The notes under the pieces are model-generated. The model saw only the letters and a list, made by a program, of their open reading frames with translations. It was not told the DNA's origin and did not search any database. From NCBI RefSeq assembly GCF_000018465.1, contig NC_010085.1, forward strand, positions 1,440,001 to 1,472,000: a DNA stretch of 32,000 nucleotides, in the 5' to 3' direction. This DNA is from Nitrosopumilus maritimus SCM1. GTDB lineage: Archaea; Thermoproteota; Nitrososphaeria; Nitrososphaerales; Nitrosopumilaceae. Below, piece after piece: positions 2,282-32,000 of the stretch. The translations under genes and the position numbers were made by a program. Each line of letters starts with the position of its first letter. Within the stretch, counting starts at the first letter, position 1.

Positions 2282-3151
2282 CTAATTTAGCAAAGCAGCA
2301 CCATAGACACCTGCTGAATCTCCCAATTCATTTTTCAAAATAGGGGTATCAACTAAATCTGAAAATACTTTTTCATAAACAGATTTTTTTCCTTCAGTAT
2401 ACAGGAAATCAATATTTGACAAACCACCTCCAAGTACAATTGCATCAGGATCCAAAATGTCAATCACATTTGCAAGACTATATCCAAAATTTTCTAAAAA
2501 TTCACTTTTCCAGGTTTTTCCAATATCATTATCAAGATTTGAAAGGATTTCAGGTACGGATTTTGATTCTCCTGAGAGTAATTCCCATTTTTGTTCCAAT
2601 GCAGGACCACTGATGTAGGTCTCTACACATCCAGTTTTTCCACAATAACATGGATTTCCATTACGATGCAATGTATGATGTCCCCATTCTCCAGCAATGT
2701 TGGTTCTTCCTGAATGTAGTTTTCCATTAACAGTAATACCACCACCAACACCAGTCCCCATTATCACGCCAAAAACAAGATCAAAATTTTTTGCAGCACC
2801 CATTTTTGATTCTGCCATAACAAAACAATTTGCATCATTTTCCATTACAATAGTTTTTTTCAATTTTTTTTCTAGATCTTCTTTTAGAGATTTTCCAATC
2901 AAACACTGAGTGTTGCTGTTTTTTATCAATCCAGTTTTTTTTGAGATTGCACCGGGAGTACATATTCCTAAAGAATAATCTAGAGTATTACTTGATAATT
3001 CTAAAACCAAATTTGAGATAGTATCAAGTATTTCAGAATAATTATTTTTAGGGGTTGGAACTCTTTTTCTTTCTAAAACATTTAGAGAATCATCTAATAG
3101 AATTGCTTCAGTTTTTGTTCCACCTAAATCAACACCTAGCTTGTACAACAA
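2282..3151 (-). CDS. ROK-family sugar kinase (glucokinase / N-acetylhexosamine kinase-like)
   Basis: 289 aa. It carries the N-terminal LGVDLGGTK phosphate-binding motif, GTGVGGG, and the ROK zinc motif HH...CYCGKTGCVETYISG. Confidence 0.85.
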   Translation of the reverse strand: MLYKLGVDLGGTKTEAILLDDSLNVLERKRVPTPKNNYSEILDTISNLVLELSSNTLDYSLGICTPGAISKKTGLIKNSNTQCLIGKSLKEDLEKKLKKTIVMENDANCFVMAESKMGAAKNFDLVFGVIMGTGVGGGITVNGKLHSGRTNIAGEWGHHTLHRNGNPCYCGKTGCVETYISGPALEQKWELLSGESKSVPEILSNLDNDIGKTWKSEFLENFGYSLANVIDILDPDAIVLGGGLSNIDFLYTEGKKSVYEKVFSDLVDTPILKNELGDSAGVYGAALLN

Positions 3152-3188
3152 TAACTTATGAAAATTAGAACGCTTAAGTTTTAATCAA

Positions 3189-4811
3189 TTATCCCATTGG
3201 AGGCATGCCACCGCCACCTGGACCACCAGATACTGCAATGACATCATCAATTCTAAGAATCATACATGCAGCTTCTGTTGCAGATTTGATAATCTGTTCT
3301 TTGACAGCAATTGGTTCTACAACATCAATAGAAAGCATATCTGCAATCTTTGTGTTTTTAGCATCAATACCAGTCCATTTACGACCTTGGTTTTGTTTTG
3401 CTCTCAAGTTTGCCATTGTGTCAATTGGATCCATTCCTGCATTTTCAGCAATTGTTAATGGAATTACCTCTAAGGCTTCAGCATATTTCTTAATTGCAAG
3501 TTGTTCTCGTCCATCAAAATTGTCAGCCCAGTCTTTGAGTTGTGATGCTGCAAATGATTCTGGAGCACCTCCACCTGCGACAATTTCAGGCTTTTCAATT
3601 ACGTCTTTTACTACCATGAGAGAATCATGAATAGAGCGGTCAACCTCATCAATTACTCTTTGAGAGCCACCACGAATCAACATTGTAACTGATTGTGGGT
3701 GTTTACATCCTTCAATGAATACCCATTTGTCAGATTCAACTTTCTTTTGGTGAACCAAATTAGCAGAACCAAGATCTTTTTCAGATAGGTCATCAATATT
3801 ACTAATTACACGGCCGCCAGTTGCTTTTGATAGTTTAATCATATCACTTTCTTTTACACGACGTACTGCAAGAATTCCGTTTTTGGCAAGATAATGTTGT
3901 GCAATATCATCAATACCTTTTTGGCAAATTAGAACATTAACTCCAATATCATGTAGTTTGTCAACCATTGTCTTGAGCATTCTGTTTTCCTCTTCTAAGA
4001 ACATCTGCATTTGAGTAGGATCAGAAATTCTAATTTCAGAACTCATTTCAGTTTTTTCAATTTCAAGTGCGGAATTTAACAAAGCAATGTTTGCTTTATC
4101 GATTTTTGTAGGCATTCCACTGTGAACAATTTCTTTATCTAAAACAATTCCTTTAACAATTTGAGTATCTTGAATTGATCCACCTGATTTCTTTTCAACT
4201 TTTATGTTTTCAAGATCAACAAAGTAATCTTCACCTTTCTTTGTAACTATGCTAAGAATAGCATCAACTACAATTTTTGATAATGTATCACTATCTTCTG
4301 AGATTAATTTTGATTGCATACTTGTTGTAGCAATTTTAATGAGTGATTCTTTGTCATCTGGTTTAATTTTCTTTGATAATTCAGAATAGATTTCAAGGGT
4401 TTTTTCTGCAGCAGCTTGATAACCGTCAATAATTGTTGAAGAATGAACATCTTTTTTGAGTAGGTCTTCGGCTTTAGCCAAAAGAGTACCTCCAAAAACT
4501 ACAGAAGAAGTTGTACCATCTCCAACTTCATTGTCAACAGTTTTTGAAATTTCAACCATCATTTTGGCTGCAGGATGCTGAACATCAATTTCTTTGAGAA
4601 TTGTTGCCCCATCATTTGTAATAGTAACATCACCTAAGGAATCAACTAACATTTTATCTAGACCACGTGGGCCAAGGCTGCTTTTGACTAATTCTGTAAC
4701 TAATTTTGCGGCTGCAATGTTGTTTTGTTGAGCGTCTTTACCTTTTTGTTGTAATGCACTCTCTTTGAGCACTAAAACAGGTCCATTTGGTCCTTGTTGA
4801 ATTGATGCCAT
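3189..4811 (-). CDS. ths: thermosome subunit (group II chaperonin)
   Basis: 540 aa. It has [17 protein letters not shown] and the GGGAPE ATPase motifs, plus the typical Gly/Met-rich tail [12 protein letters not shown]. Confidence 0.97.
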
Positions 4812-4814
4812 TTA

Positions 4815-4838
4815 GATTCAGCTTCAATCCCCTGAATC
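4815..4838 (-). promoter_or_regulatory. perfect 7-bp inverted repeat (GATTCAG-N10-CTGAATC) ending 3 nt upstream of the thermosome ATG
   Basis: Read directly: + strand gattcag (4815-4821) and ctgaatc (4832-4838). It lies between an A/T box (GTTAAAAA on the - strand) and the start codon. Confidence 0.35.
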
Positions 4839-4855
4839 CCCCTTTTTAACATTAC

Positions 4856-6619
4856 TTAGTTGATCGGTGAGATGTAACTTCGTTTTTTCACATCAACTAT
4901 ACCACCTGAAAGAATTCTGACAGAGGGTAAAGCCAAGAAAGGTAAGAACAAAGGAATCAGGTGAGGCCTAGAAAACTTGCATCCAGAATCAACAATAGAA
5001 TTGTTGATTTTTTCAAAGTTTGATGAAACCTTTTCAAAAGAATCTGTTGAAACGATCCCTGCAAATTGTAAAGGTAGTGAAGCAAGTATTTTACCGGATT
5101 TTACAACTACTAACCCACCTTGATTTTTTATCAAGTGGTTTGAAGCAACTTCCATGTCAGAATCATTTGAACCAATAACTATTAGATCATTTTCATGAAA
5201 ACTCCAAGTAGATGCAAATGCACCAATATCAGCACCAAAATTTTCAAGAAATCCTATAGAGTGTTTGCTTGTCCCATGGGTTCTATCAAATGCGGCTACC
5301 TTCCAGATATCAGAGTCTAAAGATGCAGATATCAAATTGTTCTTAGATTGAAGTTCAGCTGAACCTATCTTTGTAATAATTTCAGTCTGCATGAATATTG
5401 TGTTTGCAATAACATCTTTCTTTTTAGATTTTATTTCAAAATCATTTTTTGAGAATTTTTTTAATTTTACAGTATTTTTAATCCAAGGAGAGATTGTTTT
5501 TTTCTTTATAGGAAAAACAATTTTTCCATCAGATACTGCAAGTTTTCCACCTACGAATACGGTTTTGGGTCTAAAAGATTTCAAATCATTAAAAATTAGA
5601 ATATCAGCTAGTTTTCCGGGTGCAATTCCACCAAGATCTTTTCCCATGTTATAATAATCAAAGTTATTTTTTGATGCCATACTTACTGCATCAATCGGTT
5701 CTAGACCGAGTTTGATGGATTCACGAATACAATGATCAATATGACCAAATTTTGTAATATCTTGTGGATCAAGACCATCTGAACAAAACATCAATCGGTT
5801 TAGATATGTTCCATGAGACAACACTCTAGGAACAATTTCTTTCAAATCACGCCGAATAGAACCTTCTCTAATCATTATCCACATTCCAAGACGCAATCTC
5901 TCTAAGACTTGATCAAAATTAATTGGTTCGTGACAAGAAAGAACTCCTGATGAAACATAGGCGTTAAGTTTTTTGTCACTTGCGCCAGCAGTATGTCCAT
6001 TGATTATACAATCACATTCCAACATTGCAGAAAGAGATTTCATTGTTTTTGGTTCACGAAGAGTAACTTTTGTCCAAGAAAAAACTTCACCCAATCCAAG
6101 TACATGTGGATGTTTTACTGCAGATTTTTCTTGAGATAAAGTGAGAGTGTTGCTATTGCTAAATTTTGCATCAACAGGTAATCCACCAGGTACAACCTGA
6201 AAAATTCTTACGGGGAGGTCTTCTCCCAATTTTAAAAATTCTTGAAATCCTTTGTATCCACCTACACTAACAACATCAATAGGATCAGAAAAAAGAGAAG
6301 TTACGCCACAAAGAAGTGCTTGTTTTGCAAATTCAGATGGAAGAACAAATTGATCAATATGTAGATGAGGGTCTGCAAAACCGGGACCGACATACTTGTT
6401 TTTTACATCAATGACTTTTGTTTTAGGACCTTGGGCATGTGTTGCGTCTGGTCCAACATATGCAATTCTCTCACCAGTTATTGCAATCTGAGTTTTTGGA
6501 ATAATTTCTCTAGTATAGACAGAAAGTAAATTACAATTTTTTAAAATTAGATCTGCTTTCTTATCACCCATAGCCACAGAATTTAGAGTAGAGATCGAAT
6601 TTGCTAGGCTCGAAGTCAC
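4856..6619 (-). CDS. ade: adenine deaminase-family amidohydrolase (Ade/COG1001-like)
   Basis: 587 aa. Motif order matches the Ade family: PGFADPHLHID (HxH), NGHTAG, SCHEP, FCSDG, GHID, GGIAPGKLAD. The GTG start at 6619 sits about 26 nt downstream of a TATA-like box (6641-6650). Confidence 0.75.
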   Translation of the reverse strand: MTSSLANSISTLNSVAMGDKKADLILKNCNLLSVYTREIIPKTQIAITGERIAYVGPDATHAQGPKTKVIDVKNKYVGPGFADPHLHIDQFVLPSEFAKQALLCGVTSLFSDPIDVVSVGGYKGFQEFLKLGEDLPVRIFQVVPGGLPVDAKFSNSNTLTLSQEKSAVKHPHVLGLGEVFSWTKVTLREPKTMKSLSAMLECDCIINGHTAGASDKKLNAYVSSGVLSCHEPINFDQVLERLRLGMWIMIREGSIRRDLKEIVPRVLSHGTYLNRLMFCSDGLDPQDITKFGHIDHCIRESIKLGLEPIDAVSMASKNNFDYYNMGKDLGGIAPGKLADILIFNDLKSFRPKTVFVGGKLAVSDGKIVFPIKKKTISPWIKNTVKLKKFSKNDFEIKSKKKDVIANTIFMQTEIITKIGSAELQSKNNLISASLDSDIWKVAAFDRTHGTSKHSIGFLENFGADIGAFASTWSFHENDLIVIGSNDSDMEVASNHLIKNQGGLVVVKSGKILASLPLQFAGIVSTDSFEKVSSNFEKINNSIVDSGCKFSRPHLIPLFLPFLALPSVRILSGGIVDVKKRSYISPIN

Positions 6620-29868: not shown

Positions 29869-30123
29869 TTAACGATTAGAAAGTTTTTTTGATTTCACAA
29901 ATGCCCAAATCTTTTTGGTCATTTCACTTGGGGCAATTGGTTTTTTACCAAATATTTGTTCAGCAGTTTCTTTGCGACCTGCAAAACTAATGGCATATCC
30001 ACCAAATGCTGGTTTCTTTGCTTTTGATTTGGTTGCTTTCTTTTTTGGTGCAGCCTTTTTCTTTGGTGCAGCCTTCTTTTTTGTGGTAGTTTTTCTTTTG
30101 GTTGTTTTCTTTTTTACTGCCAA
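29869..30123 (-). CDS. Lys-rich small basic protein with C-terminal half-SWIB/MDM2-like segment
   Basis: 84 aa. The N-terminus is MAVKKKTTKRKTTTKKKAAPKKKAAPKKKATKSKAKK. The C-terminal IFGKKPIAPSEMTKKIWAFVKSKKLSN aligns by eye with the SWIB core (e.g. chlamydial IVGAGPMPRTEIIKKMWDYIKKNGLQD, recalled from memory). Confidence 0.6.
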   Translation of the reverse strand: MAVKKKTTKRKTTTKKKAAPKKKAAPKKKATKSKAKKPAFGGYAISFAGRKETAEQIFGKKPIAPSEMTKKIWAFVKSKKLSNR

Positions 30124-30159: not shown

Positions 30160-30816
30160 TTAGAGCTTTACGTAATGTAAAACTAGATGATTTTTGAGCC
30201 TCTTTACTGATTTGAGTCTGAGATTAGGAGAATGAGAAATTCTGCTAAATCCAGTACCTCGTAAATAGGAAATAGAGTCTTCTCCACCAAGTAAGTAAGG
30301 AGATATCGTTAGTATCATTTCATCAAAGAGATTATGTTTTACAAATTCCCAGTTTACAGTTCCTCCTCCTTCAACCAGTATTGTTTTGATTTTCTTTTTT
30401 GATAGTTTTTTCAACAGTAATTTTAAATTCACAGAATCATTACCGGTACTAATTATTTCAACAGGGAATTTTTCTAGTTTTTCAAGATTTTTTTTAGTAA
30501 TTTTTTTAGATATTGCAATTATCGTTGGAACTTTGTTACTTGATTGAAGAATTTTTGATGTTTTTGAAATAGTACCTTTAGAATCTAAAACAATTCTGAT
30601 AGGGTTTTTTCCTTTAACATGACGAACAGTCAAGAGAGGATTATCACGTGATGCGGTATTTTTTCCAATAAGAATTGCATCTACACTTGAACGTAATTTA
30701 TGAAGTCTTTGAATATCTTTTTGTGATGAAAGTTTTGAATCGTTTGTTTTAGTTGCAATTTTTCCATCAACAGATATTGCTCCACTTAGAATAACATGAG
30801 GTCTAGATTTTTCCAT
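30160..30816 (-). CDS. arfC: 2,5-diamino-6-(ribosylamino)-4(3H)-pyrimidinone 5'-phosphate reductase (archaeal riboflavin pathway, RibD C-domain homologue)
   Basis: 218 aa. SGAISVDGKIATKTNDSKLSS...LHKLRSSVDAILIGKNT...DNPLLTVR...ILVEGGGTVNWEF closely tracks the archaeal MJ0671-type reductase as I recall it. Confidence 0.88.
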   Translation of the reverse strand: MEKSRPHVILSGAISVDGKIATKTNDSKLSSQKDIQRLHKLRSSVDAILIGKNTASRDNPLLTVRHVKGKNPIRIVLDSKGTISKTSKILQSSNKVPTIIAISKKITKKNLEKLEKFPVEIISTGNDSVNLKLLLKKLSKKKIKTILVEGGGTVNWEFVKHNLFDEMILTISPYLLGGEDSISYLRGTGFSRISHSPNLRLKSVKRLKNHLVLHYVKL

Positions 30817-31993
30817 GAACTATTTTACCTCCAATCATTACTGCTTGGATTGCAGATTCAGATGCTCTATGTACAATAGATGCATATGGTTCATGCATTG
30901 GTTCTAAATCTAATGCATGTTTGTTTAGAAATATGCAATCAGCAATTTTTTTGGTTTCAATTACTCCAATGTCTTTTTTTAGTATTTTTCCTCCATTTAC
31001 GGTAGCCATTTTCAAAATTTCTTTAGGATTGATTCTTTTTTTATGAATGCCCATTGTGACTTTCCAAAGATAATCCATTTCTCTGAACATGTCAGGAGAG
31101 TTTATCATAACATTATCTGTGCCTAATCCAAGCGTACAACCGGCCTTTTGCATCAAAGTAATGTCAGGAATTCCTTCAGCCAAAGAAGAATTTGCTCTTG
31201 GGCAAACTACTATTCCTCGAGTTTTTTTTGCAGCTAGATGAAGATCACTGTTTGATGCATGAGTCATATGAATAAGAAAATGAGGTTTCATGGACAATGC
31301 ACGAATCACTTCAGATTTTCTAGTCATCTTTTTAGATCTTGAAACGCTCTGTTTTGTTTCAGCAGAATGAATTGCTCGAATCTTTGATGTCTTTGAGTAA
31401 TGATTCAATGTTGAAGTACTGTTCTCATTTGCACCACTAACTCCAATACCATCACATTTTTGAAGAATTAGAGGCAATTCCTTGGCTTTTTCTTTAGGAA
31501 TGGGGAGATTTTTTTTGATTTCAGTTGAATTTTGGTAGAAATTAACCCTACCCAAAATAATTGATCGGATTGGAATTTCAGATAATGTTTTTTTCAACAA
31601 GATAACACCATCTAAACCCCCTTCTCTAAAATCAACAAAGGTGGTTATTCCTTTTCTAATCATAGAATGACATGTATTTTTCATAAAATTAGACAAATTT
31701 TCAGGAGGAGTGTTTTTTAGAATTTTTGACTTTGCCCCAAAAACAGGATGTATTTTTTTATCTACAGAACTTTCTAGAGTGACATCTTTTCCAATTGAAT
31801 CACCTATGTGTGTATGTGCATTGATAAATCCTGGGATCAATAAAAGATCTTCACAGTCAATAGAATCCTCTTTACCACTTGGTTTAATGTTAGGTTGAAT
31901 TCGTTTGAATCTACCATCTTGAATTTGTACATTTGTTTTTGAAACAAATTCTAATTCTTTTCCTAAAAGGAGACTAATGTTCTTGATTAACAT
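30803..31993 (-). CDS. amidohydrolase-superfamily deaminase (COG0402 / ATZ-TRZ / guanine-, SAH-deaminase-like)
   Basis: 396 aa. Metal and catalytic motifs occur in the canonical order: PGFINAHTH (HxH), IHSAETK (H-x-x-E), HMTH, LGTDN (Asp). It overlaps the arfC start by 14 nt. Its ATG at 31993 is 7 nt from the window edge. Confidence 0.85.
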   Translation of the reverse strand: MLIKNISLLLGKELEFVSKTNVQIQDGRFKRIQPNIKPSGKEDSIDCEDLLLIPGFINAHTHIGDSIGKDVTLESSVDKKIHPVFGAKSKILKNTPPENLSNFMKNTCHSMIRKGITTFVDFREGGLDGVILLKKTLSEIPIRSIILGRVNFYQNSTEIKKNLPIPKEKAKELPLILQKCDGIGVSGANENSTSTLNHYSKTSKIRAIHSAETKQSVSRSKKMTRKSEVIRALSMKPHFLIHMTHASNSDLHLAAKKTRGIVVCPRANSSLAEGIPDITLMQKAGCTLGLGTDNVMINSPDMFREMDYLWKVTMGIHKKRINPKEILKMATVNGGKILKKDIGVIETKKIADCIFLNKHALDLEPMHEPYASIVHRASESAIQAVMIGGKIVHGKI

Positions 31994-32000
31994 GATAATT

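Follow-up and report, generated by a model that had tools for sequence, protein, structure and literature searches.

An amidohydrolase encoded between arfA and arfC in Nitrosopumilus maritimus is the probable deaminase of archaeal riboflavin synthesis

In archaea, few steps on the way to riboflavin and the FO/F420 precursors still lack an assigned enzyme, and a deamination is among them. Orthologues of the RibD deaminase are missing in Archaea (Rodionova et al., 2017; PMC5397151), and reduction precedes deamination in Methanocaldococcus jannaschii, as found with cell extracts and ArfC (Graupner, 2002, as cited in PMC5397151). Osterman, Overbeek and Rodionov (2010, as described in PMC5397151) put forward a candidate, 'PyrD', on grounds of clustering on the chromosome and co-occurrence; Rodionova et al. 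placed PyrD in the RbkR regulons of 15 genomes and wrote that the prediction 'remains to be tested'. HVO_2483 and MJ0699 (Q58110) were later listed as candidates needing experimental confirmation (Pfeiffer and Dyall-Smith, 2021; PMC8305020), and the passages retrieved from a 2026 review of the pathway name no archaeal deaminase. Here we analyze a member of this family encoded in a 32,000-nucleotide stretch of the N. maritimus SCM1 genome (NC_010085.1, positions 1,440,001 to 1,472,000; hereafter the window). The gene, referred to below as X, occupies 30803-31993 of the minus strand in the open reading frame (ORF) list, and its product is a predicted 2,5-diamino-6-(5-phosphoribitylamino)pyrimidin-4(3H)-one deaminase. 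We estimate at about three in four the probability that this amidohydrolase is the archaeal deaminase of riboflavin synthesis, acting on the product of ArfC. The initial annotation of this DNA had proposed a guanine-deaminase-like amidohydrolase as the missing archaeal enzyme, and the operon position of X, its gene neighborhoods, its co-occurrence with ArfC, the lack of a RibD-N protein and the separate clade described below all back that proposal. Its accompanying claim that the archaeal gene had not been assigned holds for experiments but not for predictions, as the same family was proposed in 2010 and 2017. The 2017 prediction probably covered this very lineage, because Nitrosopumilales genomes were part of that regulon study. 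Our result is a rediscovery of a published prediction, low in novelty and well supported.

By sequence, the 396-amino acid product of X is the Nitrosopumilus orthologue of MJ0699, a COG0402 (subtype III) amidohydrolase of the deaminase type with a predicted mononuclear metal center. It passes the NCBIfam equivalog model NF005552 (PRK07213, 'chlorohydrolase') over its full length (330.7 bits, cutoff 294) and matches Pfam Amidohydro_1 (PF01979) at 129.9 bits. MJ0699 itself reaches 589 bits on NF005552 and shares 35% identity with the window protein (E 5e-51). The Q58110 cluster entry, 380 amino acids long and named 'Uncharacterized protein MJ0699' or 'atrazine chlorohydrolase isolog', stands among Methanocaldococcus relatives of this family, and orthologues from Methanocaldococcus lauensis have been deposited as 'Pyrimidine deaminase archaeal predicted'. 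The nearest protein relatives of the window protein are all from Nitrosopumilus. Because only 181 matches at E≤1e-30 were found among 1.84 billion representative sequences, we regard the family as small and distinct.

Sharing a superfamily and its motifs with many other enzymes, X might instead encode a nucleoside or base deaminase (DadD/MtaD-like, or acting on guanine or aminofutalosine) that merely lies beside arfC. Weak matches to the corresponding models exist, but they fall far under the cutoffs: 102.7 bits for the DadD model NF005557 (cutoff 522), 67.8 bits for guanine deaminase TIGR02967 (cutoff 375.4, the C-terminal part alone being aligned), 69.3 bits for aminofutalosine deaminase NF006269 (cutoff 320) and 55.6 bits for NF012037, a model of the DadD/MtaD group (cutoff 779). 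Taken together, models of DadD, MtaD, guanine, 8-oxoguanine and aminofutalosine deaminases and of SsnA gave 55.6-102.7 bits, all far below their cutoffs. We also built a maximum-likelihood tree (LG+C20+F+G4 with posterior mean site frequencies, PMSF) in which 33 members of the family were set against 14 DadD/MtaD-like paralogues of the same phylum. The two groups were split with 100/100 support and in 100% of bootstrap trees, with the window protein, MJ0699 and proteins of M. maripaludis, Methanobacterium, Thermoplasmatales, Asgard, Bathyarchaeia and crenarchaea on the family side. Ten of the paralogues were scanned, and the models nearest to them were NF004701, NF004995 and NF005557, of the TRZ/ATZ and 5'-deoxyadenosine deaminase group. 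The DadD-like and aminofutalosine alternatives that the initial annotation had offered fail by both model scores and tree.

The same annotation had described a full deaminase signature, and all four of the motifs that it quoted are present. The strand-1 motif PGFINAHTHIGD (31799-31834, minus strand, as for all residues here) holds the metal ligands H60 and H62 together with the invariant, family-specific D65. HSAE (31358-31369) supplies two invariant residues, H209 as a metal ligand and Glu212 as the catalytic residue of HxxE, HMTH supplies H242 (31268-31270), the likewise invariant strand-6 histidine of the deaminase set, and GTDN (31112-31123) supplies the metal ligand D293, followed by N294. 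In subtype III deaminases such as those for cytosine and guanine, the metal is bound by the equivalents of H60, H62, H209 and D293, and protons are transferred by the HxxE glutamate and the strand-6 histidine. Across 33 members picked for diversity, the most distant of which is 18% identical to the window protein, the residues P54, N58, H60, H62, D65, K88, E124, H209, E212, H242, R266, N268, G291, D293 and N294 are invariant (33/33), and the set H60, H62, D65, K88, E124, H209, E212, H242, R266, N268, D293 and N294 is complete in the window protein.

Six residues set the family apart from the 14 paralogues: D65 (M or Q in the paralogues), K88 (hydrophobic), E124 (in a short insertion), R266 (T or V), N294 (G) and R376 (S, Y or N). 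Conversely, the paralogue-conserved R69, E92, H186 and Y375 (aligned positions, window-protein numbering) are replaced in the family, which argues against the unrelated deaminase considered above. The basic residues K88 (31730-31732), R266 (31196-31198) and R376 (30866-30868; conserved in 30 of the 33 members) fit an anionic, phosphorylated ligand, with K88 possibly contacting its phosphate or ribityl part and R266 its phosphate. An AlphaFold model computed from 48 sequences (pLDDT 95.9, pTM 0.94) has the COG0402 deaminase fold. Its best structural matches in the PDB are all COG0402 deaminases or dechlorinases (TM 0.79-0.87, identity 14-22%), including adenosine/5'-methylthioadenosine (MTA) deaminase homologues, AtzA, TrzN, the isocytosine deaminase Vcz and guanine deaminases. 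Searching PDB sequences returned no close solved relative, the best match being AtzA at 74.7 bits, followed by homologues of MTA/S-adenosylhomocysteine (SAH) deaminase.

X overlaps the genes on both sides. At its 3' end, the ORFs confirm the 14-nucleotide overlap with an ArfC-type reductase gene that the initial annotation had reported (30803-30816, minus strand, ATGGAAAAATCTAG), in which the arfC start ATG lies upstream of the X stop TAG. This arfC (30160-30816, minus strand) encodes a 218-amino acid archaeal 2,5-diamino-6-ribosylamino-pyrimidinone 5'-phosphate reductase, with 195.5 bits on TIGR01508 (cutoff 186.45) and 169.2 bits on RibD_C (PF01872). At the other side the window ends 7 nucleotides past the X start, and arfA, ribH, ribB and ribE were found upstream in the flanking genome sequence. 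The 3' end of arfA (GTP cyclohydrolase III; PF05165, 164.2 bits) lies at 31987-32000 of the minus strand, the gene continuing to about 32742 (2987-3742 of locus L002, whose coordinates become window coordinates on adding 29000); it overlaps the X start by 7 nucleotides (31987-31993, ATGTTAA), and ribH in turn overlaps arfA by 4 nucleotides. The whole forms a tight minus-strand cluster in the order tetratricopeptide repeat (TPR) protein, ribE, ribB, ribH, arfA, X, arfC, in which ribE encodes a bacterial-type riboflavin synthase (228 bits) and ribB and ribH score 219.5 and 131.2 bits. A related-locus scan of genome contigs, started from a 14-sequence alignment, returned 80 loci, all of them from Nitrosopumilales; the order ribE-ribB-ribH-arfA-X-arfC is kept in 80/80 wherever the contig allows. 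The stop/start overlap of X and arfC recurs in essentially all of these loci, so the pairing is not due to chance.

The spacer between ribE and ribB contains CTACCACTTTATTGGTAA directly followed by TTACCAATTCTCAAGTAA and then a TATA-like TTTATAAT, about 20 nucleotides 5' of the probable ribB start ATG. The first two form a tandem RbkR-type operator (L002 4846-4891; CTAC-N10-GTAA, then TTAC-N10-GTAA), and the spacer has exact TTAC-N10-GTAA sites, often in tandem, in 57 of 68 Nitrosopumilales loci. These sites match the RbkR operator consensus for Thaumarchaeota, which includes two adjacent palindromes (Rodionova et al., 2017; PMC5397151). Given this operator 5' of ribB and the tight gene order, X would come fourth in a predicted flavin-regulated unit, ribB-ribH-arfA-X-arfC, whose expression should follow flavin demand. 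A scan for sigma-70 promoters and terminators, with a model unsuited to an archaeon, stayed at background level. The ribB ORF as called (TTG, L002 4880) is over-extended across the operator, and its true start is probably the ATG at L002 4823. The bacterial-type RibE synthase (L002 4902-5495) is used by Nitrosopumilales within an otherwise archaeal-type operon; crenarchaeal clusters carry archaeal RibC between ribB and ribH (L126 7383-7847, L143 10666-11133, L145 7748-8218). Outside the window, the 241-amino acid TPR protein (L002 5520-6245) is encoded directly 5' of ribE in most Nitrosopumilus loci.

For a wider view we sampled 301 Thermoproteota genomes and examined stretches of about 19 kb surrounding 40 divergent matches. 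Divergent orthologues, with 18-37% identity and 38-273 bits to the Nitrosopumilus protein, adjoin riboflavin genes in at least six other arrangements, their neighbors being arfC, arfA, ribH, ribB-ribC(archaeal)-ribH, a creatininase-family gene or cofH. The pair occurs as X-arfC or arfC-X in families f2 (Bathyarchaeia), f36, f33 and f26, and as X-arfC-creatininase in f9/g128. Longer clusters read ribB-ribC(archaeal)-ribH-arfA-X in f18 (ribC confirmed at 212.8 bits) and arfC-arfA-ribB-ribC-ribH-X, with a creatininase-family gene alongside, in f17; X is divergent from ribB-ribC-ribH-arfA in f3 and stands as ribH-X in f22. The adjacency is not confined to one genome, being found in 80/80 Nitrosopumilales loci and in many arrangements across the phylum. 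In one f33 locus (L127 8062-11224), arfC-X is convergent with cofH, which encodes a subunit of FO synthase (508.8 bits). The substrate of CofH is the deaminated, dephosphorylated pyrimidine, and this locus links the family to deazaflavin precursor supply besides riboflavin.

MJ0699 was initially taken for a DUF447 protein, an identification that we rejected, as Q58110 is a 380-amino acid amidohydrolase of the present family. DUF447 is absent from the N. maritimus genome and generally shows no linkage to rib genes in other genomes. In one lineage, f36, a DUF447 gene lies directly 5' of the X-arfC pair (L121 8305-8949; G161:C9:40955-41314); outside f36 it is tens to hundreds of kb from rib genes.

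We then compared the distribution of X with that of ArfC, called as an intact match to TIGR01508 at E≤1e-40. A profile, A3, was built from the 33 diverse members, and proteins reaching at least 196 bits were counted as orthologues. These score 196-461 bits, align over their full length and measure 350-430 amino acids in all listed matches but one, whereas paralogues score at most 178 bits, mostly measure 405-594 amino acids and mostly align from profile position 12-19. An orthologue was found in 109 of the 301 genomes and ArfC in 122. All 109 orthologue-bearing genomes have ArfC, and none of the 179 genomes without ArfC has an orthologue. In patchy families the same genomes carry both genes (1/12 in f9, 3/14 in f3). 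Both the linkage to rib genes, in many arrangements, and the strict match to ArfC bear out the association that the initial annotation had raised. Phylum-wide adjacency and the restriction of X to ArfC-bearing genomes add to the scores, tree and replaced residues given above, and we consider it very improbable that X encodes an unrelated deaminase that happens to lie beside arfC.

In thirteen genomes ArfC is present without an orthologue. Two of them are fragmented assemblies from f10, a family that otherwise has the gene, and one (G093) has a divergent copy, with 144 bits to A3 and 168 bits to a custom hidden Markov model (HMM). The other ten fall in f11/g50, f39, f43, f37 and f22/g45. Because lumazine synthase is absent from all seven tested of these ten, and because their ArfC-like gene stands beside Glycos_transf_3 or DUF359, we conclude that the ten are not riboflavin producers. 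No RibD-N type deaminase was found in the ArfC-bearing genomes without X that were searched. Genomes without lumazine synthase keep an ArfC-like RibD_C reductase, at 173-235 bits to the custom ArfC HMM (L159 6602-8650; L160 8187-10074; L161 6255-8807; L163 6630-8676; L164 6957-8837; L165 7980-9183). In f11/g50, f39 and f43 it adjoins a gene for a Glycos_transf_3 protein (TrpD or nucleoside-phosphorylase-like) of about 380 amino acids, in f22/g45 a DUF359 gene. The reductase of these genomes has a role outside riboflavin synthesis.

Within the N. maritimus genome, a single contig of 1,645,259 bp, we looked for other enzymes that could perform the step. The initial annotation had left room for a RibD-N homologue, and there is no canonical RibD-type deaminase: the cytidine deaminase (CDA) fold is represented by one dCMP-deaminase-like gene and one cytidine deaminase gene, and neither matches a RibD model at E≤1e-5. 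X itself does not belong to the RibD-N/RIB2 group (CDA fold; PF00383, TIGR00326 positions 1-135), as its product is a TIM-barrel amidohydrolase. The genome has three Amidohydro_1 genes. Besides X these are the gene of an adenine deaminase and one resembling dihydroorotase/hydantoinase, which leaves no DadD/MtaD paralogue. The adenine deaminase homologue, 587 amino acids long, lies in the window at 4817-6580 of the minus strand (L007 817-2580) and scores 379.4 bits on TIGR01178, under the cutoff of 472.5.

The position of X directly after arfA, with a 7-nucleotide overlap, raises another interpretation, namely a formamide hydrolase that replaces ArfB and deformylates the ArfA product (AFRPP), with no deamination. 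Amide hydrolysis is within reach of amidohydrolase-superfamily enzymes, and the creatininase-family protein of this genome is weak on the ArfB model NF033501, with 38 bits against a cutoff of 180. That protein nevertheless scores 170.4 bits on PF02633 (gene at genome positions 197069-197710, next to purU), and the presence of its gene gives the formamidase step a candidate of its own. The creatininase family includes ArfB and BrbF, both proven AFRPP formamidases, and BrbF carries out the reaction although it is distant from ArfB (PMC9478397). X belongs to neither: its product has no PF02633 match, the Pfam scan having given two Amidohydro families alone. In other lineages a creatininase gene adjoins arfC and X (L123, L143, L144, L149), and several lineages pair X with arfC alone or with arfC and cofH, arfA not being in the vicinity. 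In M. jannaschii the characterized ArfB (MJ0116, as cited in PMC5397151) occurs together with MJ0699, so the family is no substitute for ArfB there. Contrasting genomes with RibA and with ArfA gave no separation of deaminase from formamidase, GTP cyclohydrolase II being present in 1 of the 301 sampled genomes. The main argument against an ArfB substitute is the separate creatininase candidate, the presence of ArfB and MJ0699 together in M. jannaschii, and the deaminase residue set with its invariant HxxE glutamate and strand-6 histidine. We therefore consider this role for X improbable.

We infer the substrate, reaction and regulation of the favored deaminase from the observed gene structure, family, residue conservation, operon context and co-occurrence. 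X would be translated from a ribB-ribH-arfA-X-arfC message, with stop/start overlaps on both of its sides, behind the tandem RbkR-type operator. Its product would hydrolyze the 2-amino group of the ArfC product, 2,5-diamino-6-(5-phospho-D-ribitylamino)pyrimidin-4(3H)-one, yielding 5-amino-6-(5-phospho-D-ribitylamino)uracil and ammonia, the same conversion that the fungal RIB2 deaminase carries out. Water on a metal held by H60, H62, H209 and D293 would attack C2 of the isocytosine-like ring, with E212 of HxxE and H242 shuttling protons in the manner of the guanine, isocytosine and cytosine deaminases. D65, K88, E124, R266, N294 and R376 may line a pocket that receives the 5-amino, ribityl and phosphate moieties.

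Several points weigh against a deaminase acting on this substrate. The substrate is deduced from context alone, and clustering and co-occurrence place X in the pyrimidine branch rather than at a particular step. About one-fifth of the orthologues examined (f10, f12, f30 and some of f22) are not beside rib genes, and because the genomes are related, the co-occurrence counts are descriptive rather than a statistical test and overstate independence. In the literature searched, neither an enzyme assay nor a knockout of a family member was found. The phosphatase step of the archaeal branch likewise lacks an assigned gene (PMC8305020).

We know of no characterized COG0402 deaminase that acts on a phosphorylated substrate. 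X could act at another point of the riboflavin/FO pyrimidine branch: as the 5'-phosphatase, in deaminating the ribosylamino form before reduction (EC 3.5.4.26), or in clearing side products or damaged pyrimidines. Context that fixes a pathway and not a step would suit these roles, as would the missing phosphatase gene and the signs of a phosphorylated ligand in K88, R266 (33/33) and R376 (30/33). The metal and catalytic set and the fold are nevertheless those of deaminases and not of known phosphatases, and the order of steps in M. jannaschii (Graupner, 2002, cited in PMC5397151) speaks against deamination before reduction. A housekeeping deaminase would also still be required, for which the genome has no other candidate. 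We judge a role at another point of the branch to be unlikely. Equally doubtful is a version in which the family performs no deamination of the predicted kind and serves as 5'-phosphatase, deformylates AFRPP where the creatininase-family protein is not ArfB, or controls damage from a reactive intermediate. If the enzyme is not a deaminase, K88, R266 and R376 would point to a novel substrate specificity, directed at a phosphorylated compound.

If the deaminase assignment is confirmed, it would be a case of non-orthologous displacement, with a TIM-barrel amidohydrolase in place of the CDA-fold RibD-N/RIB2, and thousands of annotations as 'chlorohydrolase', 'cytosine deaminase' or 'amidohydrolase family protein' would be corrected. 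The candidate has been in print since 2010, which limits the value of the present analysis, and a simple bench experiment could now put the prediction to the test. What we add are the phylum-wide neighborhood and co-occurrence figures, the explanation of the exceptions as non-riboflavin producers, and the residues that separate the family from DadD/MtaD-like paralogues.

Downstream of the cluster, in a window with about 33% G+C, an 84-amino acid lysine-rich protein is encoded at 29869-30123 of the minus strand, 36 nucleotides 3' of arfC. It has no Pfam match at the threshold used, and its C-terminus weakly resembles the SWIB-domain tails in models of topoisomerase fusions (22.6 and 17.8 bits).

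Among known systems, X is closest to the MJ0699/HVO_2483 family (SEED 'Pyrimidine deaminase archaeal predicted'), with which it shares NF005552, the clade, the invariant residues and the linkage to riboflavin genes. There is no essential difference from this family, whose function is itself a prediction; the window gene sits in a mosaic operon with a bacterial-type RibE. With fungal RIB2 and bacterial RibD-N the proposed chemistry is the same, hydrolytic loss of the 2-amino group of a diaminopyrimidinone, and the ribitylamino substrate is shared with RIB2, but their CDA fold is unrelated to the TIM barrel found here. Guanine deaminase (2uz9, 6ohb) and the isocytosine deaminase Vcz / 8-oxoguanine deaminase (7ww2) have the same fold (TM 0.79-0.85) and the same HxH/HxxE/H/D set, and guanine and isocytosine present the same 2-amino-4-oxo-pyrimidine edge as the proposed substrate. 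The family differs from them in its 15-20% identity, in scores far under their cutoffs, in its own invariant D65, K88, E124, R266 and N294, and in being about 50 residues shorter than COG0402 deaminases of the guanine/isocytosine type. DadD/MtaD enzymes (acting on 5'-deoxyadenosine, MTA and SAH; MJ1541 type, TM0936 1p1m, 4f0r) are the closest neighbors in the PDB by sequence and structure and belong to the same TRZ/ATZ subgroup, yet the MJ0699 family forms a separate clade, does not keep the residues of these paralogues and lies in a different genomic context.

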